Assembly (NCBI GenBank): GCA_963827235.1
Contig: CAWHAE010000009.1
Coordinates: 672,001-736,000 of the forward strand
DNA: 64,000 bases
DNA from: an uncultured bacterium
GTDB taxonomy: Bacteria; Chloroflexota; UBA5177; JANWHV01
Direction: 5' to 3'
In this document: in pieces, positions 27,974 through 53,065 of the stretch
How the letters are laid out: the number at the start of each line of letters is the position of its first letter
How positions within the stretch are numbered: the stretch's first letter is position 1
Notes under the pieces: generated by a model
The model's input: the letters and a program-made list of their open reading frames with translations, nothing else
The model's database searches: none
What the model was told of the DNA's origin: nothing
Position numbers and translations under genes: made by a program

Positions 27974-28428
27974 CAGCGCCCAGGTCCATGGCGGCGGTCC
28001 CGGCCGACTGTTGAATCCGAGGCACGCACGGGGGCACTTTGAGCCCCCAAGTCGGGCCATTCGGCCCTCCATTTCCTGGGCCGAGTGTACTATCATGCCC
28101 GCGCGTGAGTGAGATGCACGCCTGCCGTGGATGCGATGACCCGCAGCCTTGGACAGGAACCGACGCCTCAAGACTCGAGAGTGATAGAGCTCCACTCCCA
28201 CTCTTCCGACGCCCGCTCTTGCCTGGCCACCCTAGACTGCCGCGAGCAACTGGTGAAACCGGCCACGACCGTGAGGTTATGTGCCGGTTTCTCGCGTCTC
28301 ACGCAGGGAGGTACGCGGAGCGAGCGACCAGGCATCTGCCGCGCGTGCGGATCTGAAGCGCTCAGATAGTTCCTGCCTTCTGCTTCTCGAGCCCTTCGAT
28401 AGCGTAATGCGTGCGGAGGTAAACAGCG

Positions 28429-31400
28429 ATGCGCAGTATGCTTCGTTTTGGATCCGGCCCCGCCGGTCGAGCCCTGCGACGATGGATACCCATCCTCGTG
28501 ATGCTGGCAGCCATCCTACCACCAACAAGCAGCGAAGCGCATGCGAGCCGCACCGCCGGCTGCAAGCAGGGCGGCTGCCCAGCCGTACAACCAGCGACCA
28601 CACAACCGTCGACCGTATCGAGCCGCGCAGCAGGCTCAACGGCAGCTCCCAATACTACCCTCGACGTGGCCGACGGATACATCCAGGTTCAGGCTCCCAA
28701 TAACCTGCGCATCATCGGCCCATCGTACAGCACAACCATCCAGGCAGGCGACAACAGTGCAAGCCAATTCTTCAGTCCCGGATTCGGCTCCGTGATGCTC
28801 GATGCCGGCGCGCGACTCAACCTCACCGTACTCGATACCAACGGCAATAGAGGGACCTATACAGCGATCGTCACGCCCTCCACGTACGTAGCCAAGGACG
28901 GACGCGTCTACCTCAAGGGCAGCGGGTACCTAGGCAGCGGCTCCCGCGAACCGCTGGCCATCAAGTATTATCCGTCAGGATCTAGCATAGGCAATCTCCA
29001 GTATTGGGTGGCTGAAGTCACCAATCTGGATACGCAAGACGTCCATCTCACCATCGATATGACTCAGGGACCTACCAACTTCACCAATGGACGTTACCAG
29101 AACGTCGGCAACGGCAGCGGCGATAACTTCGTCATCGACGCCGCAAACAGCTACCTGAGAATCAACGACACCGGCATTGCCAACATGTACATAGGTATGA
29201 AGCCGCTGAATACACCGACGAGGCACTTTCAGGTGTCCAGCTCGTGGATGGACGACTCTAGCTACATCAGCACCAATCACAAACTGAGCGATACCGTATC
29301 CCAATCCTCCAGCGGCTATGGTGACTACGTCTATCTCCAAAGCGGGGACCTTGCTTCAGGATCAGCAAGTACAACCACCATCACTCCAGGTGCCACGGCG
29401 ACGTTCGCCTGGGCAATAGGTTACGCGACGACTCAAGCGGCGCTCACCACGCTCATGAACGGCAGTGACGCGCAGTTTGGCTCTGACTTAGGTGCCTATA
29501 GAGCACTAGCCGCCAACACAGTGATGACGGTGACCACACCGTACGCAAGCTTCAACTATCTGCTCGAGTCGATGATGAGGACAGAGCTCTATAGCTCCAA
29601 GCTCATGCAGGTGCATGGGTATCAGGCGCCGCCCGCAGGAGCATACACGTTCTTCACACCCTTCGCACGCGACGGCTACTACGCGGCACTCAGCAATGGC
29701 CAGGCAGGCAATACCAGCTCTATCAGAGACCAATTCAATCTCTTTAGGAGCATAGAGAATGCCAACCACAGCCAGCAGCATGAAGCCGGCTACTACGTCA
29801 ACTCCAATGGCATGTACTTTGCGTATGGCAACAACGGATCTCCCGGCGATCAGGATATGTATCAGATTCTGGAAGCGTATGAATACTACGTTCGTACCGG
29901 AGACAAGCCCTTCCTGACGGCAAACATATCCTACCTGGACAACATAGGAGACTACCTTGTCGGCTACTATAACACCAATATAAGCACGGATGGGCTATTC
30001 GAGTCAGCAGGGTGCGCGACATATCTAGACGGCAATGGAAATCTGACCGGTAGATCTCCCGTCGTGGATCCGATCATGAACGCACTGTTTGCCTATACCA
30101 TGAACCGGCTATCGGAATTGAATGCGATCACAGGAGATACTTCCAGGGCCAGTACGTACGCCGCTGTCGCCACCAAGATAACCCAGAACTACTCCAAGCT
30201 CTTTCTCCCCTCGACAAACTGGCTACTGTTCAACAGAACGCCTGATGGTCTCACGACCTACTCGAACGAGGCGCTGACCAAGATAGATGCATTGATATTC
30301 GACGCACTGACGGATACGACAGAACAGCAGGCAATGGTGACTAACGTACTGGGAGCTACATGGTGGGACTCGACCAATGAGGCTTTCTATGAGACGCCAA
30401 CGAACGATAGTCTGTTTAGTCCTGGCTCGTACTGGTACGGTCCCGGATGGAACTTGACCGACTACAAGGCATTCTCCGCCATATTCAGATACGGAACGAC
30501 GGCCCAGGCGCAGGCGGCGTGGTCACGCTTGCAGCTTCACACGGATCGAGTGATCGCCTCGCAGTACGGCAATCCGGGTGAGCACAGCGGAGACAATGGC
30601 CTGTTCGACTTTAGCCTATCGGCGGTAGAGATGGTAACTAGAGGCTTGTTCGGCATCGACGCGCATAGCACGTATTTGACTGCTTCGCCCAATACGTGGA
30701 AGATAGGTGCCGGATCGACCTGGTCATTGAGTAACTATACGGCCGGCGGTCATTACTATAGCTTCACGGTGAGTGGCGACGGCCCGCAGCAGACGACGTA
30801 CCTTGATGGCGTTCTCCAGTCGTCGAACAGGCTCTATTACGATGGCAGCGATCATACTGTAGCGATCGTGATGTCGGCTACTACAATCTCGCCCACGCCG
30901 ACTGCAGCGTCCGCCTCGGCGACACCGACTACTACTCTCGCCTCGTCCACCCCGACCGCGGGGTCCGCCTCGTCCACCCCGACTGTGCCGCCTGCGTCGC
31001 CCACGCCGACTTCCGTACCCGTTTCGCCCACGCCGACTGCCACGGCGGCGGGCGGGATCGTGACCTTGGGAGGGCTCAATCTGGATGGATTCTGCCGCGC
31101 TCAGGGCTTAGGTAGCAATGCCTCGCTCGTCAATGGAGTGTGGTACTGCTCGAGCACGAGGATCGACATGGTCTCGGCCTGCAAATGGCAGTATCCGTCG
31201 GCGCAGAACGTTACCGCAGCTGAAGCTCAGAACGGCAATGCCTATACTTGGACGTGCTACGGGGGCGCCGTAGCGTCTTCCCCCACGCCGACCGCGGCCA
31301 CTCCCTCCGGCACGGCAACTTCCACACCAACAGGGAGTGCACAGAGAGTGACGTCGTTCGGGCTCTATAACGCTACGACCAATCAACCGATAGCCGGATA

Positions 31401-31692
31401 CAATCCACTACTTAGCGGTTCGACGATCAGTTTGTCGGCTTTGCCGAGCACACACTTGAATATCAATGCAGTTACATCACCGGCGATGGTTGGCAGTGTG
31501 GTTTTCGGCGTGGACGGAAATGCGAATTATCATACTGAGAACTATACCCCTTACTTCTTAGCTGGTAAGAGCGGCGGATATTGGATACCGTCAATTGGGA
31601 CGCACACCATCTCAGCAACTCCCTTCACGGGCTCACAAGGGTCAGGAGCAAGAGGGCTGCCTTCAACACTTGTCATTACCTTTGCTCAGTAG
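28429..31692 (+). CDS. Large secreted modular protein: putative (alpha/alpha)6 glycoside hydrolase, S/T/P linkers, 4-Cys domain, Ig-like C-terminus
   Basis: Signal peptide ending AHA; FARDGYY, YEYYVRTGDK.FL, YWYGPGW motifs typical of six-hairpin glycosidases; GGAGGT RBS. Confidence 0.75.
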   Translation: MRSMLRFGSGPAGRALRRWIPILVMLAAILPPTSSEAHASRTAGCKQGGCPAVQPATTQPSTVSSRAAGSTAAPNTTLDVADGYIQVQAPNNLRIIGPSYSTTIQAGDNSASQFFSPGFGSVMLDAGARLNLTVLDTNGNRGTYTAIVTPSTYVAKDGRVYLKGSGYLGSGSREPLAIKYYPSGSSIGNLQYWVAEVTNLDTQDVHLTIDMTQGPTNFTNGRYQNVGNGSGDNFVIDAANSYLRINDTGIANMYIGMKPLNTPTRHFQVSSSWMDDSSYISTNHKLSDTVSQSSSGYGDYVYLQSGDLASGSASTTTITPGATATFAWAIGYATTQAALTTLMNGSDAQFGSDLGAYRALAANTVMTVTTPYASFNYLLESMMRTELYSSKLMQVHGYQAPPAGAYTFFTPFARDGYYAALSNGQAGNTSSIRDQFNLFRSIENANHSQQHEAGYYVNSNGMYFAYGNNGSPGDQDMYQILEAYEYYVRTGDKPFLTANISYLDNIGDYLVGYYNTNISTDGLFESAGCATYLDGNGNLTGRSPVVDPIMNALFAYTMNRLSELNAITGDTSRASTYAAVATKITQNYSKLFLPSTNWLLFNRTPDGLTTYSNEALTKIDALIFDALTDTTEQQAMVTNVLGATWWDSTNEAFYETPTNDSLFSPGSYWYGPGWNLTDYKAFSAIFRYGTTAQAQAAWSRLQLHTDRVIASQYGNPGEHSGDNGLFDFSLSAVEMVTRGLFGIDAHSTYLTASPNTWKIGAGSTWSLSNYTAGGHYYSFTVSGDGPQQTTYLDGVLQSSNRLYYDGSDHTVAIVMSATTISPTPTAASASATPTTTLASSTPTAGSASSTPTVPPASPTPTSVPVSPTPTATAAGGIVTLGGLNLDGFCRAQGLGSNASLVNGVWYCSSTRIDMVSACKWQYPSAQNVTAAEAQNGNAYTWTCYGGAVASSPTPTAATPSGTATSTPTGSAQRVTSFGLYNATTNQPIAGYNPLLSGSTISLSALPSTHLNINAVTSPAMVGSVVFGVDGNANYHTENYTPYFLAGKSGGYWIPSIGTHTISATPFTGSQGSGARGLPSTLVITFAQ

Positions 31693-31714
31693 TGAGCGCT
31701 GACTGCCTTGCTCG

Positions 31715-32677
31715 CTACAAGCCCGGTCTTAGCGCCAGCTTCCAGAACACCACGACGATGCCGAGCAGCAGCAGCGCCAGAACGGCATAGTACGGGCAGA
31801 GCAGTAAGCCGGACAGCGCCGCGACCGCGCCGAACGCCGCGCTTATCTGCAGCAGCCAGTGCCGGCCCGCCTCCTTGACCAGGAACGTGGCGACCCGTGA
31901 CCCAACCGGTGGCGCGGCAGCCTCACAAGGTGGATCCGGCGCCCAGCCGAACATGCGCTCAACGCGCAGCACGGATTTCTGTCGCTCGGCCTGCGCCTCT
32001 GCATCCCGCAGCAGCACTTGCCCTGCACTCCGGGCCGCAACCTCGATCTCATCCACGATCTTCGCGAAGCCGATAGTAGCCACGGCCTCGGTCACCGGCA
32101 TCGGCCCGTAGGAGCAGGCCAATGGGCCATCACGTCCTGCCGCTTGCCGCTCCTGGCTGGGGACTACGCGCGCGAAGCAGGGTGCCGAGGCGCTGATCAG
32201 TGTCTGCTCGGCTGCGCTGGGCACGTCGAGAGCGACAAGATGGGTGAACAAGCCCAGTTCCGCGTGGCACGCACCTGCGTCGCCGCCAGACTCCAAGGCA
32301 AAGCGGAGGGTCGGGCTGGCTAGATGGGGCCATATGGCGCCGCTGGCCGCGAGGATCCCCGTCAATGCCCACGTCTCGCGTTCGAGCAAGTCCGCCGCTT
32401 GCCGGGCGTGATCTTCGCGGGACTGCGTGAGGGTTTGGAACGACTCCCACAAGCCGGCCTGCCCGCTACCCACACGTCGAAGACGCTCGTGTGTGTCCTG
32501 CTCGCCAGGCGCTGCTGGCTGGCCGGTGGCGGCGGCACCCCACGGCGTGCTCTGGTCGTTTGTCGAACCGTCTCGTCTCTGGAGCGGTACGGCAAGCCGT
32601 CCCTCGGCTCGCTCCTCGCCGGCGATCCAGCCATAGGGGGAATACGTCGCTGCGTCCTCGAACTTGTCAGCCTTCAT
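31715..32677 (-). CDS. Hypothetical protein with two C-terminal TM helices
   Basis: 320-aa ORF ending in hydrophobic segments; no family recognised. Confidence 0.55.
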   Translation of the reverse strand: MKADKFEDAATYSPYGWIAGEERAEGRLAVPLQRRDGSTNDQSTPWGAAATGQPAAPGEQDTHERLRRVGSGQAGLWESFQTLTQSREDHARQAADLLERETWALTGILAASGAIWPHLASPTLRFALESGGDAGACHAELGLFTHLVALDVPSAAEQTLISASAPCFARVVPSQERQAAGRDGPLACSYGPMPVTEAVATIGFAKIVDEIEVAARSAGQVLLRDAEAQAERQKSVLRVERMFGWAPDPPCEAAAPPVGSRVATFLVKEAGRHWLLQISAAFGAVAALSGLLLCPYYAVLALLLLGIVVVFWKLALRPGL

Positions 32678-44069: not shown

Positions 44070-45595
44070 GAAGTGAAAATGGCTCGTGCCTACACAGCGA
44101 CGTCCGCGGACTCCCGAAGCTGGAGGGATACATCGAAGCCCAAGGCCTGCAAACGGCGGACGAGTCGACGCTGGGCAGCCTGCTTGTCGCGCTGGTCAAG
44201 ATAGGTGACGCCCAGCTCCTGATACGGTTCATGGTCACGCAGGAGGTGGTAGACGATGACAAGGATGCTGCGGGCCACGGCCACCGCAGCCCGCTTCTTG
44301 CCGCGGCGTGCCAGCAGGCGATGGTAGAGTGCGCCAAGGTACGTGTTCTTGGCGTGCCCAGCGGCGTGCGCAGCGTCGACGAGCAGCGCGCGCAACCAGG
44401 GACTGCCCTTGCGTGTCTTGCCGCTCTTGCGTTTGCCCGCACTGATGTTGTTGCCAGGGGCGACGCCAGCCCATGAGGTCAGATGGTTCGCGCTGGGAAA
44501 GCGGCGCATGTCGGTCCCGATCTCGGCGATGATGGACTGGGCAGCGACGAGCCCAATGCCCGTGATGGCGTCCAACCGCTCGATGTCCTCTGCACTCAGG
44601 GCAACGCGGCTCGCAACCTCGGCACTGACGCGCTCGATGGCCCCATCCAGGTAATCGATGTGTGCCAGCTGCTCGGCCAGCACGAAGCATTGGTGTGGGC
44701 CGACCGTGCCGCTGAGGGCCTGCTGGAGTTGGGGAATCTTCTCCCGCATGCGCCCGCGTGCGAACTGCGCCATGGTGGCGGGGTCGGCCGTGCCCGCGAT
44801 CAGGGCTGCCAGCACGTCTCGCCCAGATGCGCCGGTGATGTCCGATGCCACGCTACTCAGTTTAGTGTTGCCGCCTTCGAGCACCTTCTGCACCCGATTG
44901 ACTTCGTCCGCGCGCTCCCGAACCAGGGCCGTACGGTAGCGGGTCAGCTCCCGCAGTTCCCGCAGCGGGCAGTCAGGGATGAAGCTCGCCCGCAGCAAGC
45001 CGTGCCGCAGCAGGTCCGCTAGCCAGGCGGCATCCCGGACATCGGTCTTGCGCCCTGGCACCTGCTTGATGTGAGTGGCGTTGACCACGATGACCGTCGG
45101 CACCACGCCTTCCAGCAGGTTGTATGGCGGCTTCCAATAACTCCCGGTCGACTCCATCGCCACCGCCGGGCACGCCGCCACCAGCCAGTCCACGAGCGCC
45201 AGCAAGTCGCTGGTCATGGTGCCGAAGTGCGCACCTCCTGCTGCGGCACCCCTGCAACGCCTGGGGTGAGCAGACAGGCGACCACGCTCTTCTTGTGCAC
45301 GTCCAGACCACAGCACCGCTCGTACAGGACCTCCATCGCGCTGCTCCTTCCTCCAGGCGCGTCCACCCGCTGCGAGATGGTGCGCGGGAGTGCCCCATAA
45401 CGCGGAGTCTGAAGTGCGTGCTCTCCCGAAGGAGGCAACAGCCGGTGCTACCCAAGGGCACTCCGGTCAATCCTATGCGCGGGCTCGTAGCACCAGCCTT
45501 GTTCCGACCTTCGTGCGTCCTCACCGTCTCGCCCCCACGATACCACCCAGTGGTCTCGCGCAGCACAACCACATTTTCATGGGCGGTGGTGGTCC
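44070..45595 (-). mobile_element. IS110 family insertion sequence
   Basis: DEDD recombinase plus ~250-bp upstream non-coding region; short inverted TGAAAATG (44074-44081) and CATTTTCA (45572-45579). Ends approximate. Confidence 0.85.
44090..45336 (-). pseudogene. IS110 transposase/recombinase with a 1-bp frameshift near 45229
   Basis: CGLDVHK, then frameshift, then AMESTGSYW, GRKTDVRDA, WAGVAPGNNISAGK. Confidence 0.9.
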
Positions 45596-45653
45596 ATGAC
45601 CATGCGTATCTTGTTCCCAAACCGGGGGCATGCGCCGGCGCGCGGAGACTCCA

Positions 45654-46229
45654 TGGGTGAGACTGTGAAGGTAATGCGGGCAGGTGATCCCATATGGGTC
45701 GTCGACTATGACCCTGCCTGGCCAGCGCTCTTCGCCCGGCAGGCAGCAGAACTCCGTGCGGCATTAGGTCTGGTTGCGGCGCGTATCGACCACATTGGGT
45801 CAACTGCTGTTCCAGCCACGCTCGCCAAACCTGTAATCGACGTTCAGATCTCGGTGTCCGATCTAGAGCCCGTGGGCCGCTACCGCCTCCTCCTGGAGAG
45901 GTCGGCATATCTACAGCGCCGACAACCCCGATCGCACCAAGCGCTACTTCCGCGAGATCCCAGGGCAGCGCCGCACACACCTGCACGTCCGGCGCGCCGG
46001 GAGTTTTGGCGAGCAGTTCGCGCTGTTGTTCCGGGATTTCATGCGGGCCCATCGGGAGGCTGCCCAGCAGTATGGAGCACTCAAAGTGGAGCTGGTGCGG
46101 CTCTATCCTCGCGTGGAGGATCGCCACGCCTACACGGCAGCCAAGACCCCGTTCATATGGAACATCATGACCCAAGCAGACGCGTGGGCGCAGGAGACCG
46201 GATGGCTGCCAGGTCCTTCGGACGCCTGA
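45654..46229 (+). pseudogene. GrpB family protein, frameshifted near 45900
   Basis: YDPAWP..F, HIGSTAVP..LAKPVID, then THLHV, FRDFMRAH, Y..LK, YT.AK in a second frame. Confidence 0.8.
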
Positions 46230-46356
46230 AGGGCGCCCTTGTCCTTCTTGGGCGCACCTTCCGTGGAGTACCCGGCCGGGCTTCCTGGGCGCTATCGGTA
46301 TGGGACAGATTGCGTTCCCAGCTTGGTCGCTCAATCCATGAAGAATCGGGAACTAC

Positions 46357-46894
46357 ATGAACGAGAGGCAGCTTACCCTCATTGAAGAGCTCACTTCGAT
46401 CTGTCACTCGCTGCCAATCGAGTTGTGGCTGCGCGGCGGCTGGGCTGTAGATTTCTTCATCGGGCGTGTCACCCGCGAGCACGAGGACATCGACCTGTTC
46501 ATCTGGGCAACTGACGCTCCTGCATTGGCGCGCGAGCTTGATCGTGCCGGTTTACGGCCCAAGCCGGACCGCCGGCCGACGCGCAGCGTAACTTTACGAA
46601 GGCCGGCGAGGATCTTCAGATAGCCCTGCTGAGCAAGAGCCAGAACGGCGCAAGAGCCAGAACGGCGAGGTTGTGGTCGCAGGCGGCCCAGCCGCCGGAG
46701 CACCGTGGCCGAGTGGTATGCTTGCTGGCACTGTGGGGTGCATCGGCCATCTCGTGTGCCCCATCATTGAGCCGCGCGTGCAGATCGAGATCAAGCAGAA
46801 GTTTCCGGACTGGCGGCCGGATCTGCCACGGTACCCGAAGCACCAGGCCGATATCGCGCTGCTGCGCGCTGCACTGGTACGTACCGAGGGATAG
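46357..46894 (+). pseudogene. Aminoglycoside/lincosamide nucleotidyltransferase-like protein, disrupted
   Basis: WLRGGWAVDF..GRVTREHEDID; frameshift(s) and a 17-bp tandem duplication at 46633-46666. Confidence 0.75.
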
Positions 46895-47810: not shown

Positions 47811-48199
47811 GCACAGCACCCTCCCGTCGTAGCCTCAAGTGCAGCTCCGCGCCGAGTTGCAAGGCTCGCTCGACCGTTGGCGTGCTGAGCTTGCCCATGG
47901 CAGGTGGTCCATATAGCGGCGCGGGGTTCATGGCGGCAGGATACAGGCATGGACGATCTCGCGACAAGATAGCTTCCGCCGACAGCATCGGCGGAGGTCA
48001 CCGGTGAGGATCTCGCGCGCCAGAGCGTGCATCTCCTCGGGCATCGCAAGCTCTTCGTGCTGTACCGCGCGCATCCGGGTCAGGAATAGAGCGTCTTGCG
48101 CACGCAGGAGCGGTGCTGTGGAGAACTGGAAATAGGATCGTATCGGCGCTGCCGAGCAGGAAGAGAATCCGACGGTGCTGCTGCGGCTGTCCAGCGGCT

Positions 48200-48440
48200 A
48201 CGCCTTCAGGTGCGGACACACGGTTCTTGCCGGGCTACTGCGTTCTCATGGCTGTGCCTCAGGTCAATCGCCTGACCGACCTGCCGCGTGACTGTCGGAG
48301 AGTGTTCCTGCTGGAGATGAGCCTGCTGGGCGTGGCAGTGATGACGGTGTGCACGCCCAGGCGCATCAACTACGAGATCCCGGGCACCACGGACGCCTAC
48401 CTGCACGCCCACGTGAGGGTGCGCTACGACCGGGAGCCTG
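48200..48440 (+). pseudogene. HIT-family hydrolase remnant
   Basis: FLPGYCVL...RINYEI.G..D.YLHAHV..RY. Confidence 0.6.
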
Positions 48441-48648
48441 CAGAGCAGTCGGGCCCGGCGAGAAGCCTCGCCTCGGCCGGGGACCGCTCTCGCCGGATCC
48501 GCGGCCGGGACGGCGCTCCCCTCGCGCACCACGCCCTCGGTGATAGTGCTCATGCCGTCCCGGACGCGACCGGCCGCCTTTGCCCGTCGCCGCGATGCTG
48601 GCGAGCAAAGGCGGCCAGGTGGAGTAGAAGCTGCGTCGAAGCGGCAGC

Positions 48649-49452
48649 TCAGTCGGACGTCGTCGCGGTGGGCACGCCCGTGGTCGTGGTCATCGGCTGT
48701 GCCGTTGTCGTGGTGGGCGATTGCGTCGTGGTAGTAGGCGCGGGAGTCGTGCTGGTGGTGGTGGTCGGCTGCGGCGTAGTAGTTGTGATGGGCGCCATCG
48801 TGGTGGTCGGCTGCGGCGTAGTAGTTGTGATGGGCGCCATCGTGGTGGTCGGCTGCGGCGTAGTAGTCGTGATGGGCGCCATCGTGGTGGTCGGCTGCGG
48901 CGTAGTAGTCGTGATGGGCGCCGTCGTCGTGGTTGACGCGGGAGTCGTGCTCGTGGTAGGGGCTGCCGTCGTGGTCGTGGAGGTCGTGGTCGGGCGCCTG
49001 GTAGTGGTGGTCGTTGGGCGCCTGGTGGTCGTTGGGCAGCGGTGCCGGTGGCGATCGGGATCAGGATCGGAGATCGGGTCCGCGAGCGCAGGCACCGCGG
49101 GTGCTACGATCGGCATGAGGACCAGCGACAATCCTGCCGCCGTCAGCCGCGTGATCACCTGCCGTCTCGAGAGCGTGGCCGGGCGGGAGTCGCCGTGCTG
49201 GAACAGACCGGCACTCCTCAGCTCCTCCAGCGCCAGGTCCAGCAATCCTTCAGCCTGCTGCTGAGAGACGTTGAACGTGCGCTGCAGAAGCCGGACCAGC
49301 TGCTGTGGCGTGGTCTCGCCATCACAATGCTGCCACACCAGGCTGGTCGTGGCGTTCAGGACGAAGCTCTTCCCTCGCTGCCAGTCAAAGAGGCCCAGCC
49401 CATCTCCGATGGCCTCCACTCGGACTGTGGTGATCTTCTGCGGGTTGTGCAC
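48649..49452 (-). CDS. PqqD/RRE domain fused to a twin-Arg-like leader and a mucin-like Thr/Pro-rich repeat core
   Basis: GGGAGAG RBS before GTG; LNATTSLVWQHCDG...L..ALEEL.SAGL (PqqD pattern); LSRRQVI, hydrophobic stretch, PALA; then TTTT-rich repeats. Confidence 0.85.
   Translation of the reverse strand: MHNPQKITTVRVEAIGDGLGLFDWQRGKSFVLNATTSLVWQHCDGETTPQQLVRLLQRTFNVSQQQAEGLLDLALEELRSAGLFQHGDSRPATLSRRQVITRLTAAGLSLVLMPIVAPAVPALADPISDPDPDRHRHRCPTTTRRPTTTTTRRPTTTSTTTTAAPTTSTTPASTTTTAPITTTTPQPTTTMAPITTTTPQPTTTMAPITTTTPQPTTTMAPITTTTPQPTTTTSTTPAPTTTTQSPTTTTAQPMTTTTGVPTATTSD
48758..48925. repeat. 42-bp x4 tandem repeat encoding (M/T)APITTTTPQPTTT
   Basis: Units start at 48758, 48800, 48842 and 48884 and differ at only 1-2 positions. 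Confidence 0.95.
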
Positions 49453-49529: not shown

Positions 49530-50330
49530 TCAGTCCATAGACGCCACCTCCTGCACCGGCTGCCCGGCCGGCGTTTGCAGGCGCGCGGATACCATGCTGC
49601 AATAGTCCTTCTGCCAATGTGGTACCAGACTGATGCGTCCGAGGCGAATGTGGCCGGCCGCAGCGCTTCGTTGCACGTACGCCTCGACTTCCTGGTGGCC
49701 CACGTTCTCGCCCGGCTGGTAGTTGCCAAAGCCGCTCATATGATAGGATCCCGTGCCGCCCCAGCGATAGACGTAATAGATGTCTTGCGGTCTGATGTCG
49801 TAGGGCGCGATCGCGCCGGGAAATCGTCGCGCAAGGCGGGTCTCGAAGTCCCAGTCATACCCCGTTCCCTCGGCCGCGTACCCTCCTACGGCGTCAAACA
49901 ACGTGCGCGTCCAGCAGCTCCCGGCATGGAACAGATTGGCCTCGGGACCGCGCAGCGTACCGCTGTCCAGGACCCATCCTTTGTCGGGCTTGAAGAAGCG
50001 CTGCTGCGGTGCGAGCTTCTCCACCGTAAAGGACAGCCTGTGAGGCAGGTAGATGTCGTCGTCATCCCAGACGAAGAGCAGATCGTGCGCGGCCAGGGCG
50101 ACGGCCATGTTCATCTTTTCGCCCACGGTGCGCAGGCGCTTGGGCAGGTTCACCATCCGCACCTCGGGATGGTCGATCTCCAGGTACTGCTTATCGTAGT
50201 CGTTCAAGACGATCAGCTCTTTCGGCCCGGCGTACTCCTGCCGGAGAAAGGAGAAGATGGCCTCCTCCAGCAGCGCCGGACGGGCATACGTCAGACAAAT
50301 ACAGCTGACGGGCGGATACCGATTCAACAT
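49530..50330 (-). CDS. Glycosyltransferase family 2 protein
   Basis: PPVSCICLTYAR..LLEEAI, ELIVLND, WDDDDIYLPHRL (DxD). Confidence 0.92.
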   Translation of the reverse strand: MLNRYPPVSCICLTYARPALLEEAIFSFLRQEYAGPKELIVLNDYDKQYLEIDHPEVRMVNLPKRLRTVGEKMNMAVALAAHDLLFVWDDDDIYLPHRLSFTVEKLAPQQRFFKPDKGWVLDSGTLRGPEANLFHAGSCWTRTLFDAVGGYAAEGTGYDWDFETRLARRFPGAIAPYDIRPQDIYYVYRWGGTGSYHMSGFGNYQPGENVGHQEVEAYVQRSAAAGHIRLGRISLVPHWQKDYCSMVSARLQTPAGQPVQEVASMD

Positions 50331-50443: not shown

Positions 50444-52888
50444 TCACAGGGGACAGCTCTCCTTGAACTGTTCGAATAGCCAATCGTCGCCCCGCGTGCG
50501 GCGTCCGGCCAGGGCCGCGCGCCGCTGCCAGACGTCGCTCTCCACGGCATGCGCCAGGGCCTGACCGAAGTCGGAGCTCTTTTGCATCTCGGAGGCGACG
50601 CGCGCGATGCGGTCCTGGCTGAAGTGCAGCAGCGCCACCCGCAGCACGTTGTGCGTGACAATGCCCGGCTTGAGCTTGAGCGGGTTGACGGTGCGGAAGT
50701 AGTGCAGCACGGTGACGTCCGGCACCACCCACACTTCGTAGCCCAACAGCCAGTAGCGGACGCAGAGCTCCATGTCTTCCGAGCCCCACTGTGCCATCCC
50801 TTCGTCGAACCCACCGGCATCGTCCAGAGTCTCACGTCGCATGGCCATGAACCCTCCTCCCAGCGCGGGCACCGGATGAGGCTCGTGCTGCTGCCAGGGC
50901 AGCCATTCCAAGCGCAGATTCAGCTCCGCGATGCGCTGGCCGCAGGCCGCCGGGTACTCTGGCTTGCCCATGACGCCGATCGCCGGGCCCACCACGCCCA
51001 CGCGCGGTAGGTTGAGCGTGGCTACGATCGGCTCCCACCATCGCGCCGGGAGGTCGATGTGCGCATCGGCGAACACGATCACCTCACCGCGCGCCTCCGC
51101 CAGGCCGCGGTTACGCGCCCCAGCCACGCCCAAAGGTTTTGGCGCCCGGATGAGCGACACGCGCGGGTGTGGCTGCTCGATCAGGAAGTCAGCGCTGCCG
51201 TCGATCGACCCGTTGTCGACCACGATGATCTCGCCGTCGGCCGGGATGGTCGCTTCGAACTGCTCGACCGTCCGCTGAAGCAGCACCGACTCGTTCAACG
51301 CCGGCAGGATGACGCTGATGCTAGCCGGGTGCGTGCGCCTGAACAGGCCCGCTGCTGCCTCGTCCGGCAGTGGCGTGGGGGCGGGAATGACGAAGAACGG
51401 TGGCGGGAACGGGATCTCTTCCTCGCGTTGCGGCGCGGGCTCAGTGCTCAGATACTCGAAGACGAGCCGGGCATAGTCGCTGTTCCAGCGTGGATTGAGC
51501 GTGATGCAGCCCTGCCGGACCTGCCCTTGAGAAGCTTGCTCCCGCACATGCGCCGCGATCTGTTCGCGCTCGCGGCCGCTTTGCCCATAGGCACTCAGAT
51601 GGTACGAGCCGGTCCCGGCCCAGCGATAGATATAGAAGATGTCCTCCGGCTTTACCCGCCGGCTCGCGGTAGCTCCCGTGCGCGCCTCCTCGCATCGCCA
51701 CTCGAATCCGGAGTCATAGCCGTTGTCGAGGTGGGGATAACCCTGTGCTTCGACGAAGAGCGCGCGCGTCCAGCAGCTTGCGCCGTGAAAGACGTTGTGC
51801 TCCGGACCGCTCAGCTTCCCGTCGTTCCAGAACCAGGCCCGGTCGGACTTGAGGAACCCTCGTTTCTCGTCGAGATGTGCCACCGAGAAGGACAACCGGT
51901 GGGGGAGATAGATGTCGTCGTCGTGCCAGACGAAGATCAGATCGTGCGATGCGAGCGCCGCCGCTGCCTTGTACTTCTCACCCACGGAGTGAAAGCGCCC
52001 GGGCACATTGATCACCTGCACGTCGGGATGGTCGAATGCCAGCGTCTGCTGGTCGTAGTCGTTGAGGACGATCAGCTCCTTCCGGCCCGGGTAATCCTGC
52101 AGCAAGAAGGAGTGGATTGCTTCTTCCAGCAGATCCACCCGCCCGTACGTGGGGCAGATGCAGCTCACGGGCGGCGGATCGGATAGCCGCGCCGCCCAGT
52201 CGCTCGGCGCAGTCTCCGCATCGCTCCGCGCTACAGGCACCTCCTGCCTCGCCGTGTCTGTATGGCCGCCGCTCAGGCGCCGGACGACCTGTTGCACAGC
52301 AGGATCCTGTACCGCCTGCTCGAATGCCCGCGCATAGGTCTCCGGCTCCGTCGCGGCGACCGGGATCACCACCGGCGTATCCTGCGCTTCGTCGTCCTGG
52401 GAATACGGCACGATGGTGCAGAACGGCTCGCCAGCGGTAAAGCGGACCGTGTGGTGGGGGCGGGTGAGCTTCCAATGGACCACGATCGTGCCGGGGAGCG
52501 CGGACGTATCGGCCATGCTCTCCAGCGGGTACAGGCCATCCTTGGGCGCGTTGATTGGACCGCGTACCCACAGCAGCTGCTTCTCCCCGGTCTGTATCTG
52601 GTAACCGGTATGGAAGCTCAGGATGCCGTCACCAAGCTGGCTGCGCACGAAGCCGGGCGTCTCATCCGTCGTCTGATCGAATCGAATCTCGACGTCGGCG
52701 GCCCGCGAGCCGCCATTCCAGGTCGCCTCAAAGGCCCGAGGGCAGCAGAGCTGCCAGCCGAGGCCGTTCACGCGCCGCCATGCCGGGTTGGCCTGCAGGT
52801 CCTCGTTACCCGTGGCCCACTCCCGCTCCTCGGAGGGCGCTTGCAGGCCGGCCGCCTGTTCGGACAACGCATAGGCTTTGATGGTCAT
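50444..52888 (-). CDS. DUF6065 + GT2 + GT-A (ppGalNAc-T-like) three-domain glycosyltransferase
   Basis: N-terminal GWQLCCP..F.ATWNGG/GP.N.PKDG/GEPFC (DUF6065 pattern); central GT2 with HDDDIY; C-terminal FADAH, WGSED, LHYFR. Confidence 0.88.
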   Translation of the reverse strand: MTIKAYALSEQAAGLQAPSEEREWATGNEDLQANPAWRRVNGLGWQLCCPRAFEATWNGGSRAADVEIRFDQTTDETPGFVRSQLGDGILSFHTGYQIQTGEKQLLWVRGPINAPKDGLYPLESMADTSALPGTIVVHWKLTRPHHTVRFTAGEPFCTIVPYSQDDEAQDTPVVIPVAATEPETYARAFEQAVQDPAVQQVVRRLSGGHTDTARQEVPVARSDAETAPSDWAARLSDPPPVSCICPTYGRVDLLEEAIHSFLLQDYPGRKELIVLNDYDQQTLAFDHPDVQVINVPGRFHSVGEKYKAAAALASHDLIFVWHDDDIYLPHRLSFSVAHLDEKRGFLKSDRAWFWNDGKLSGPEHNVFHGASCWTRALFVEAQGYPHLDNGYDSGFEWRCEEARTGATASRRVKPEDIFYIYRWAGTGSYHLSAYGQSGREREQIAAHVREQASQGQVRQGCITLNPRWNSDYARLVFEYLSTEPAPQREEEIPFPPPFFVIPAPTPLPDEAAAGLFRRTHPASISVILPALNESVLLQRTVEQFEATIPADGEIIVVDNGSIDGSADFLIEQPHPRVSLIRAPKPLGVAGARNRGLAEARGEVIVFADAHIDLPARWWEPIVATLNLPRVGVVGPAIGVMGKPEYPAACGQRIAELNLRLEWLPWQQHEPHPVPALGGGFMAMRRETLDDAGGFDEGMAQWGSEDMELCVRYWLLGYEVWVVPDVTVLHYFRTVNPLKLKPGIVTHNVLRVALLHFSQDRIARVASEMQKSSDFGQALAHAVESDVWQRRAALAGRRTRGDDWLFEQFKESCPL

Positions 52889-53065
52889 CGCCGGGCTGGC
52901 TCCCATATGCAGTTGCAGGCCGCAAGCGCACCTCCGCGAGGTGCCGGGCCGAGAACAGAGCAGGGGAAGTGAGCAACCCACCGGCCTTTGCCCTGCCGAC
53001 TGCGTTGCTCTCGGAGCATAGCATATCGTGAGCGATGTGCTCAACAGGTACGGCTGCCCGGGGGG

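Follow-up and report, generated by a model that had tools for sequence, protein, structure and literature searches.

The window analyzed here is a 64,000-nucleotide (nt) stretch of DNA from an uncultured, soil-type bacterium of the phylum Chloroflexota (GTDB lineage UBA5177; JANWHV01), taken from contig CAWHAE010000009.1 of GenBank assembly GCA_963827235.1 (positions 672,001 to 736,000). It carries an island of three genes, which encode a multidomain enzyme, a stand-alone glycosyltransferase (GT), and a protein that joins a PqqD domain to a twin-arginine-type segment and a Thr-rich tail. The enzyme is our main subject, since its C-terminal domain resembles the catalytic domain of the eukaryotic polypeptide N-acetylgalactosaminyltransferases (ppGalNAc-transferases, family GT27), and the Thr-rich protein is its putative acceptor. 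Positions are those of the window, and enzyme residue numbers are counted from the TTG at 53044. The genes of the island and the domains of the enzyme are as follows.

50444..52888, minus strand: gene for the 814-residue three-domain enzyme (DUF6065, GT2-like, GT27-like), from the open reading frame (ORF) call, homologue starts, and an upstream GGGAG
52334..52879, minus strand: DUF6065 domain of the enzyme (residues 56-237; Pfam PF19541, E value 8.4e-38)
51365..52189, minus strand: middle GT2-like domain of the enzyme, with a DDD motif (VWHDDD at 51914-51931)
50447..51349, minus strand: GT27-like GT-A catalytic domain of the enzyme (P0004, 301 residues; residues 566-866)
49530..50330, minus strand: stand-alone 266-residue GT2-like glycosyltransferase (P0002), with a DDDD motif (PF00535, E 8.2e-9)
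48649..49452, minus strand: gene for the 267-residue PqqD/twin-arginine/Thr-rich protein, the putative acceptor, with a likely GTG start at 49452 (V/MHNPQK)

The enzyme ORF is open on the minus strand over 50444..53044, up to the TTG at 53044. The ATG at 52888 reads MTIKAY, and because homologues begin with the consensus MKITAY and a GGGAG lies about 11 nt upstream, this ATG is most likely the start, which would give a protein of 814 residues. Within it, the middle domain yields a second Glycos_transf_2 stretch together with partial matches of the WcaA/HpnB type (residues 287-430). It is 52.5% identical to the stand-alone GT over 257 residues and is a paralogue of that downstream gene product. 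The C-terminal domain matches Glycos_transf_2 (PF00535, residues 577-741, E 7.1e-34; 117.6 bits against a cutoff of 23.3) and Glyco_transf_7C (PF02709, residues 722-776; 35.7 bits against a cutoff of 23). The first of these matches is not discriminating, because GT27 enzymes share the same Pfam model. Its start at residue 577 agrees with the span of 50444-51320 that a preliminary description, made from the letters of the window, had given for the domain. The same description held that the domain lacks a ricin-type lectin module. Pfam finds none in the enzyme at E values up to 0.1, and the protein ends 301 residues past the start of the GT27-like domain. No transmembrane-like segment was found either; the highest Kyte-Doolittle mean over 19 residues is 1.48 and lies within a predicted beta-strand region. 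The enzyme is thus predicted to be soluble and cytoplasmic, and glycosylation would therefore need to come before export of any secreted substrate.

The preliminary description had named six motifs in this domain and read them as GT27-like rather than as those of a typical GT2 enzyme. All six are present in the minus-strand ORF.

51059-51082, minus strand: VIVFADAH (residues 655-662)
51029-51040, minus strand: WWEP
50978-50995, minus strand: VVGPAI
50840-50869, minus strand: PALGGGFMAM
50750-50809, minus strand: FDEGMAQWGSEDMELCVRYW
50693-50710, minus strand: VLHYFR

HMMER aligns these one by one with the GT27 counterparts, which follow in the identical order FLDAH, GWLEP, VVCPII, MAGGLF, YDxGMxxWGGENLE, and VGHVFR. 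When the domain was searched with phmmer against 177,635 PDB sequences, the best 16 rows were all ppGalNAc-transferases (E 9.2e-20 to 4.4e-14), counting one row titled just "Glycosyl transferase," which is the Toxoplasma GalNAc-T3 named in the Foldseek rows. Next came an archaeal GT2 (6yv7, E 1.4e-12) and chondroitin synthase (E 1.1e-8). By this measure the sequence match to GT27 is far beyond chance. A profile built from the domain and 59 stand-alone bacterial relatives (A1, n = 60; relatives 33-46% identical) widened the separation, with E values of 7.9e-48 to 2.7e-39 for GT27, 1.3e-34 for chondroitin synthase, and 1.6e-22 for the GT2 that came next.

Fold comparison, which the preliminary description had suggested making with GALNT2, gave the same picture. 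The AlphaFold2 model of the domain scores a predicted local distance difference test (pLDDT) of 95.8 and a predicted TM-score (pTM) of 0.92, and the Foldseek rows that it retrieves are all GT27 down to rank 50. Re-alignment of 29 GT27 entries with VIA gave Z scores of 28.6-33.1 and root mean square deviations of 2.1-2.7 A over 279-294 residues, with model residues 1-301 superposing on residues 132-439 of GalNAc-T2. Among other families, GlfT2 came next at Z 23.1, and ordinary GT2s stood at about 20. As a control, we took the two other GT2 genes of the same genome that were next best against the MftF model, and neither (0/2) matched GT27 at E values up to 0.001. GT27 is the closest solved relative of the domain by sequence, profile, and fold, and these comparisons indicate a domain that is specifically GT27-like rather than a generic GT2.

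The alignments also place the residues expected at the active site.

51059..51067, minus strand: D660-A661-H662, the DxH metal motif, aligned to D224/H226 of human GalNAc-T2 (2ffu/4d0t)
50774..50779, minus strand: E756-D757 of WGSED, aligned to E334-N335 of GalNAc-T2
50702..50704, minus strand: H781, the C-terminal His (LHYFR), aligned to H359 of GalNAc-T2 and H344 of T1

The first of these rows covers exactly the D-A-H codons that the preliminary description had singled out. D224, H226, and H359 are the Mn2+ ligands of GalNAc-T2, and their counterparts D660, H662, and H781 are invariant in the relatives of both alignments (60/60 in A1, 37/37 in A3). The canonical DxD is absent from the GT27-like domain, where the motif reads DAH. 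W753-E756 align with W331-E334 of GalNAc-T2 in HMMER, and the next position departs from that family: the Gal/GalNAc-transferase-like motif WGSED has Asp where GT27 has Asn (WGGEN in 5/5 printed GT27 alignments). This Asp, at the xED position, is at least 90% conserved in A1 and invariant in A3. We counted motif patterns over 265 domain matches, drawn from the query domain and the 150 best library representatives. The combination of DxH, ED, and the C-terminal His was the commonest (95/265), and an NxD/ED/His type (63/265) was confined to proteins longer than 1,000 residues.

In the parts of Taujale et al. (PMC7185993) available to us, DxH is confined to GT27 and GT60, and the xED Asp is described as the catalytic base, kept by inverting families and usually lost in retaining ones. 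The bacterial family therefore joins a GT27/GT60 metal site to an inverting-type base position. Because the xED aspartate is retained, inverting (beta) transfer would be at least as likely as alpha transfer of the GT27 type. The donor sugar and the stereochemistry are not readable from sequence, and neither N-acetylhexosamine (HexNAc) nor an alpha linkage, as the preliminary description would imply, finds support here.

Some more distant relatives look different. Several giant proteins of 2,000-4,400 residues (P0160, P0174, P0217, P0246, and others) carry 3-7 related GT domain copies at 27-32% identity; their metal motif is NxD instead of DxH, and P0160 also has TPR repeats. P0151 (1,054 residues) has a Stf0-type sulfotransferase fused upstream of a relative of the GT27-like domain (42% identity). 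The 80 viral loci kept from IMG/VR are all distant (22-40% identity over the best segments), and none reaches the level of similarity seen in the cassette.

The third gene of the island supplies the putative acceptor. Its features are listed below, where RRE denotes the recognition element of ribosomally synthesized and post-translationally modified peptides (RiPPs).

49204..49386, minus strand: PqqD domain, RRE type (PF05402, E 2.5e-10; 40.9 bits against a cutoff of 23.4)
49081..49173, minus strand: twin-arginine-type signal or anchor SRRQVITRLTAAGLSLVLMPIVAPAVPALA (SRRQVITRL...PALA), ending in A-L-A
48652..49080, minus strand: Thr/Pro-rich tail of 143 residues (69 Thr, 25 Pro) with PTTT-type repeats, by composition
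48758..48933, no strand assigned: tandem DNA repeat of 42 nt in 4.2 copies (97% matches), encoding MAPITTTTPQPTTT units

The ORF reaches back to a TTG at 49617; homologues start with M-x-N-P-Q-K/R, and a GGGAGAG lies upstream of the likely start. We refer to the portion encoded by 49072-49452 (minus strand), with the PqqD domain and the twin-arginine segment, as the leader. PF05402 is present in 77/77 listed leader homologues; the lasso, ScmD, HPr-rel-A, and PQQ-type PqqD models also match, all under their cutoffs. The twin-arginine model TIGR01409 scores 16.8 bits against a cutoff of 16.7 on the 127-residue leader and 14.1 bits on the longer ORF, and it matches 11/40 members of the leader family at E values up to 0.1. 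The Arg pair itself is invariant in the 40/40 aligned members and present in all 77 homologues. It falls at residues 96-97, behind the PqqD domain of about 85 residues, so the signal is not N-terminal and begins about 94 residues into the protein. This is the sole hydrophobic segment of the protein (Kyte-Doolittle mean 1.96), and it may alternatively be a signal anchor. The PTTT-type repeats of the tail are putative O-glycosylation sites. A long Val/Gly-rich ORF on the opposite strand (48113-49264, plus strand) most likely reflects the ACC/ACG-rich repeats read in antisense rather than a real gene.

The preliminary description had tied the GT27-like domain to this mucin-like neighbour, and the link is conserved in other genomes. 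A word-indexed search matched 313 proteins, and 112 of the 120 listed combine DUF6065 with this GT domain. They occur in a form of about 800 residues with a middle GT and a form of about 530 residues without it, at 62-82% identity over the GT27-like domain. Named hosts belong to the Chloroflexi group (Kouleothrix, Caldilineaceae, Herpetosiphonaceae, Anaerolineae) and to Thermoanaerobaculia/Acidobacteria, with one Methylococcaceae metagenome-assembled genome (MAG). At 7/7 close genome loci (Chloroflexia, Thermoanaerobaculia, and Anaerolineae MAGs), a gene of the PqqD/twin-arginine type lies directly beside the enzyme gene. A Thr/Pro-rich tract ends six of these seven genes; the seventh locus (L002) instead has a PTTT-rich ORF just downstream in another frame. 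In 5/7, a small Cys-bracketed domain lies ahead of the tract.

We also approached the partnership in reverse, from the leader, by fetching 79 metagenome loci and grading them by the flank outside the leader gene on both sides. DUF6065 is present in 15/15 loci with flanks of at least 2 kb, 15/16 with at least 1.5 kb, and 19/25 with at least 1 kb. With flanks of at least 1 kb, 18/19 of the DUF6065-adjacent proteins have at least 5 Thr in some 12-residue window, versus 0/6 of the nonadjacent ones. This criterion was set with the data already in view, on loci that are related to one another, and we treat the result as a correlation rather than as a test statistic. The six loci without DUF6065 form one subfamily, whose cargo has at most 3 Thr per 12 residues, and two of them have unrelated neighbours (sulfatase plus formylglycine-generating enzyme, isochorismatase, TIR). 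Richness in Thr, Pro, and Ser over 20 residues was dropped as a discriminator, since the Pro-rich, Thr-poor subfamily passes it. At a single locus (L055:6239-9864), a sulfatase and a formylglycine-generating enzyme lie directly upstream of a Thr-poor gene of the PqqD/twin-arginine type.

The leader module is portable. In P0275-P0351 and L010-L012 it precedes other cargo, including GMC oxidoreductases (634-649 residues) and PKD, PxKF, DUF1573, Gly-rich, and Cys-rich domains. Flavoprotein cargo fits with twin-arginine translocation (Tat).

Which enzymes the cassette cannot do without can be read from the same loci. The GT27-like domain is found in 30 of 37 DUF6065-positive loci; in the remaining 7 the sequence stops no more than 700 nt from the DUF6065 match, which makes them unassessable. 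A GT of the middle-domain or P0002 type is present in 16 of the 30 assessable cassettes and absent from 14, whereas the GT27-like domain is there in all 30. Minimal cassettes such as L003 and L004 comprise the leader protein together with DUF6065 and the GT27-like domain. Because the GT27-like domain is the one catalytic domain that all assessable cassettes share, it is probably the initiating enzyme, which would add the first, protein-linked sugar. The stand-alone GT is probably a glycan-extending enzyme that a cassette can do without; PglI (E 0.0084) is all that it matches in the PDB, and no hydrophobic segment was found in it. The preliminary description had proposed an initiating Thr/Ser HexNAc transferase. 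The initiating role gains from these counts (30/30 cassettes). A retaining transfer like that of GT27 is not supported, with Asp in place of the Asn of WGGE-N.

The preliminary description had passed over the N-terminal DUF6065, the middle GT2 domain, the PqqD domain, the twin-arginine signal, and the lack of a membrane segment. Our literature search found no papers on DUF6065, and against the PDB it gave 0 phmmer matches at E values up to 10 and a best E of 0.59 with a 12-sequence profile, which is at chance level and not evidence of a new fold. The domain sits N-terminally, centrally, or C-terminally in enzymes with quite different catalytic domains. P0007 reads GT25 + GT2 + DUF6065 + GT2 + GT27-like; L003 (9789-11891) combines Galactosyl_T (GT31, 26.6 bits against a cutoff of 23) and LicD with DUF6065; L005 has DUF6065 with Glyco_trans_1_2 (GT-B; 3031-4641) and on a 1,347-residue multi-GT protein (4611-8651); and P0361 and P0362 join Sulfotransfer_2 to DUF6065. 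Up to three different enzymes in one locus carry it. Because it recurs on such varied enzymes, several per locus, we propose that DUF6065 may serve these enzymes in common for targeting or docking rather than act as a catalyst. We further guess, at somewhat short of an even chance, that it binds the PqqD domain. We had considered DUF6065 as a cupin or 2-oxoglutarate hydroxylase, as in a Skp1-like hydroxyproline route, and dropped this on account of the lack of a conserved His and the recurrence on several enzymes per locus. Taken together, the fusion partners of DUF6065 are "Golgi-like" glycan-tailoring families in bacterial cassettes.

The explanation that we favour, with fair rather than high confidence, is that the enzyme is a bacterial relative of the GT27 catalytic domain that glycosylates the neighbouring Thr-rich protein, by a mechanism that we infer from the parts of the island. 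In the cytoplasm, the GT27-like domain would use a UDP-sugar and a divalent metal to place the first sugar on Thr hydroxyls of the PTTT repeats. The middle GT2 domain and the stand-alone GT2 would then extend the glycan, and the modified protein would be exported via Tat and possibly cut after A-L-A. DUF6065 would bring the tailoring enzymes of such cassettes to this class of substrate. We file the enzyme as one that would work like a polypeptide O-glycosyltransferase and as a probable bacterial sister group of GT27, not as a member of that family, because it differs from it at the xED position, in the lectin domain, and in topology (type II anchor).

Several points weigh against this explanation. 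The xED Asp departs from GT27. The enzyme is predicted to be cytoplasmic and an export signal precedes the Thr-rich tail, so that the model needs glycosylation before export, an order that to our knowledge has not been described for Tat. The signal itself, so far into the protein and scoring just at the TIGR01409 cutoff, would be unusual for export. Related leaders occur on cargo without Thr clusters (GMC oxidoreductase, Gly-rich, Cys-rich) and with no DUF6065 nearby, so that the leader must be more than this enzyme's tag. The loci behind the synteny counts are related and not independent. The wider family includes giant multi-GT proteins and a sulfotransferase fusion and could have polysaccharide acceptors. 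The best NCBIfam match of the domain is MftF, a small-molecule GT, at 100.8 bits against a cutoff of 280. Finally, the case is one of sequence, gene-context, and model comparison.

Some of these points would suit a GT2-type transferase for a nonprotein acceptor (a polysaccharide, a lipid-linked glycan, or, as for MftF, a small molecule derived from a peptide), with the Thr-rich neighbour merely a co-regulated surface protein. Pfam places the domain in Glycos_transf_2, and among solved relatives chondroitin synthase comes directly behind GT27. Relatives are found within giant multi-GT proteins or adjoining sulfotransferase domains, and the xED Asp is typical of inverting polysaccharide GT2s in the available parts of PMC7185993. 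The best NCBIfam matches, MftF and EpsD, point the same way, yet both are far under their cutoffs (EpsD at 83.3 bits against 370), and identity with MftF was rejected on this score, with 0 over-cutoff MftF matches in the genome. Genes for polysaccharide assembly or export (flippase, polymerase, priming transferase, exporter) were not found in the island or its flanks. The PqqD/Tat partner with its Thr clusters recurs in 7/7 and 15/15 loci across phyla, and leader proteins without Thr clusters lack the enzyme (0/6). We consider a nonprotein acceptor unlikely.

It is rather improbable, in our estimate, that the Thr-rich protein is glycosylated but the GT27-like domain only extends the glycan, the first sugar coming from the middle GT2, the stand-alone GT2, or DUF6065 as an unrecognized enzyme. 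DUF6065 has no known fold or function, the window holds two further GT-A domains, and the xED Asp would fit an inverting sugar-to-sugar transfer. Against this, the 14 cassettes that lack a middle-domain or P0002-type GT keep the GT27-like domain, the minimal cassettes L003 and L004 manage with leader protein, DUF6065, and GT27-like domain, and a domain carried by up to three enzymes per locus is better understood as an adaptor than as the lone initiating catalyst. Slightly less probable still is a RiPP-like pathway in which PqqD recognizes in cis and the Thr-rich "core," once glycosylated and cut off, leaves the cell as a secreted glycopeptide instead of forming a structural surface mucin: PqqD domains are RREs (the lasso, ScmD, and PQQ models match under their cutoffs), an A-x-A site follows the hydrophobic segment, and the glycocin GT SunS shows up as a remote GT2 relative (E 2.5e-7), but the tails run to 100-200 residues, with the Cys-bracketed globular domain ahead of the Thr/Pro tract in 5/7 genome loci, some relatives carry large folded cargo (PKD, PxKF, GMC oxidoreductase), and no protease or ABC exporter was found in the island.

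If the GT27-related enzyme does glycosylate the Thr-rich protein, its closest comparison is GT27 itself. Against human GalNAc-T2 (2ffu/4d0t), the whole catalytic domain superposes (Z up to 33.1, 286 residues, 2.2 A). The two share the DxH, the C-terminal His ligand, and the GWLEP-, MAGGLF-, WGGE-, and GHVFR-type motifs in order, as well as the Pfam pair PF00535 and PF02709 and acceptors with Thr/Pro-rich repeats, here by gene context. They differ in that identity is 22-27% and in that the bacterial domain has neither a ricin-type lectin nor a signal anchor and is predicted to be cytoplasmic. The bacterial WGSED Asp replaces Asn335 of WGGEN, and the bacterial domain is fused to DUF6065 and a second GT.

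GT60 comprises cytoplasmic or Golgi polypeptide alpha-GlcNAc-transferases. Its member Gnt1, which acts on Skp1, is soluble and cytoplasmic and has no lectin domain. In these respects it resembles the bacterial enzyme, although GT60 is eukaryotic; no GT60 occurs among the PDB matches. According to the available parts of PMC7185993, GT60 has DxH like GT27, and GT27, GT60, GT7, and GT2-CHS form one clade. The beta4-Gal/GalNAc-transferases and the chondroitin polymerase K4CP (GT7/GT2-CHS) belong to that GT-A clade, are inverting, and keep the xED Asp in the same source. In the profile search K4CP ranks directly behind GT27 (E 1.3e-34), and the PF02709 motif is common to GT7/GT2-CHS and the bacterial domain. 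These enzymes differ from it in having DxD rather than DxH, a Z of about 20 versus 29-33 for GT27, and glycan rather than polypeptide acceptors.

Among bacterial systems, the serine-rich repeat adhesins are glycosylated in the cytoplasm by co-encoded GtfA/B and GalT1-type GT2s and then exported by the accessory Sec pathway. The likeness lies in a surface protein of Ser/Thr repeats, dedicated co-encoded GTs, and subsequent export, with GalT1 (5hea) a weak GT2 match. The adhesin systems differ by their initiating GT4-type GtfA/B, by SecA2/Y2 instead of the twin-arginine route, and by the lack of PqqD and DUF6065. MftF (TIGR03965; E 8.3e-29, the best NCBIfam model match) comes from a pathway that also has a PqqD-family protein, but the acceptor of MftF is a small peptide-derived cofactor, and the bacterial domain falls far under the model's cutoff. 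In the literature searched, we found no description of the enzyme/PqqD/Tat system, nor of an RRE-type domain ahead of a Tat-type signal. PMC3417536 deals, in the parts available, with apicomplexans, and PMC10939349, in the parts available, just names one archaeal protein as ppGalNAc-transferase-like.

We offer a wider reading only tentatively, and think it more doubtful than the local one. Under it, these cassettes would represent an undescribed bacterial "leader-guided" mucin-type system with PqqD (RRE-like) and twin-arginine substrates and a DUF6065-docked, Golgi-like toolkit (GT27-like, GT31-like, GT25, LicD/fukutin-like, and Sulfotransfer_2 enzymes). Glycosylation of the Thr clusters, perhaps joined by sulfation in some lineages, would take place in the cytoplasm ahead of Tat export. 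The clade with DxH, the xED Asp, and the C-terminal His would be a prokaryotic sister or ancestral-type form of eukaryotic GT27/GT60, and would mark an intermediate state between the members of that GT-A clade that invert (GT7/GT2-CHS) and those that retain (GT27/GT60).

Mucin-type O-glycosylation that begins with GT27 enzymes is regarded as an invention of the eukaryotic Golgi, and its prokaryotic roots are unclear. The bacterial family closest to solved GT27 structures keeps the three metal ligands together with the catalytic-base Asp of the inverting relatives, and it is tied genetically to secreted proteins with Thr/Pro repeats. It thereby bears on the origin of mucin-type glycosylation and offers an expressible system in which the origin of the inverting-to-retaining switch in the GT-A clade can be tested. 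It also points to a new kind of enzyme-to-substrate targeting, in which the substrate carries a PqqD domain and Tat signal and the enzymes carry DUF6065. The system gives DUF6065 a testable role, and its substrate would be an instance of a protein glycosylated ahead of passage through Tat.

The setting of the island suggests horizontal acquisition, because its distribution is sparse and an IS110 element is adjacent. The source genome (8.0 Mb in 21 contigs, 95.9% complete, 9.06% contamination) has one DUF6065, one leader protein of this type, and one TatC. Among 201 genomes of the same phylum, the source genome alone has a relative of the GT27-like domain at E values up to 1e-25, and it alone has DUF6065 over the cutoff. 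The leader matches at E values up to 1e-10 in 3/201 genomes including the source; outside the source, both matches are remote (31-40% identity), sit on different cargo, and lack DUF6065. A search of four genomes of the same genus (83-92% complete) did not recover the cassette. The flanking genes encode the IS110 transposase, gene fragments, a methyltransferase, AHSA1, ArsR, and a phosphatase.

After the IS110-family transposase (44090-45316) come a truncated GrpB ORF and an 88-residue fragment resembling an aminoglycoside 2''-adenylyltransferase, so that 44090-46623 looks like the decayed edge of an acquired island. At 28001-32000 the G+C content is 0.576-0.583, against about 0.65 elsewhere in the window, and this is possibly another foreign segment. 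Caulobacter vibrioides, whose DUF6065 context could open a way to genetics in a model organism, gave the sole DUF6065 match over the cutoff among 14 control genomes.

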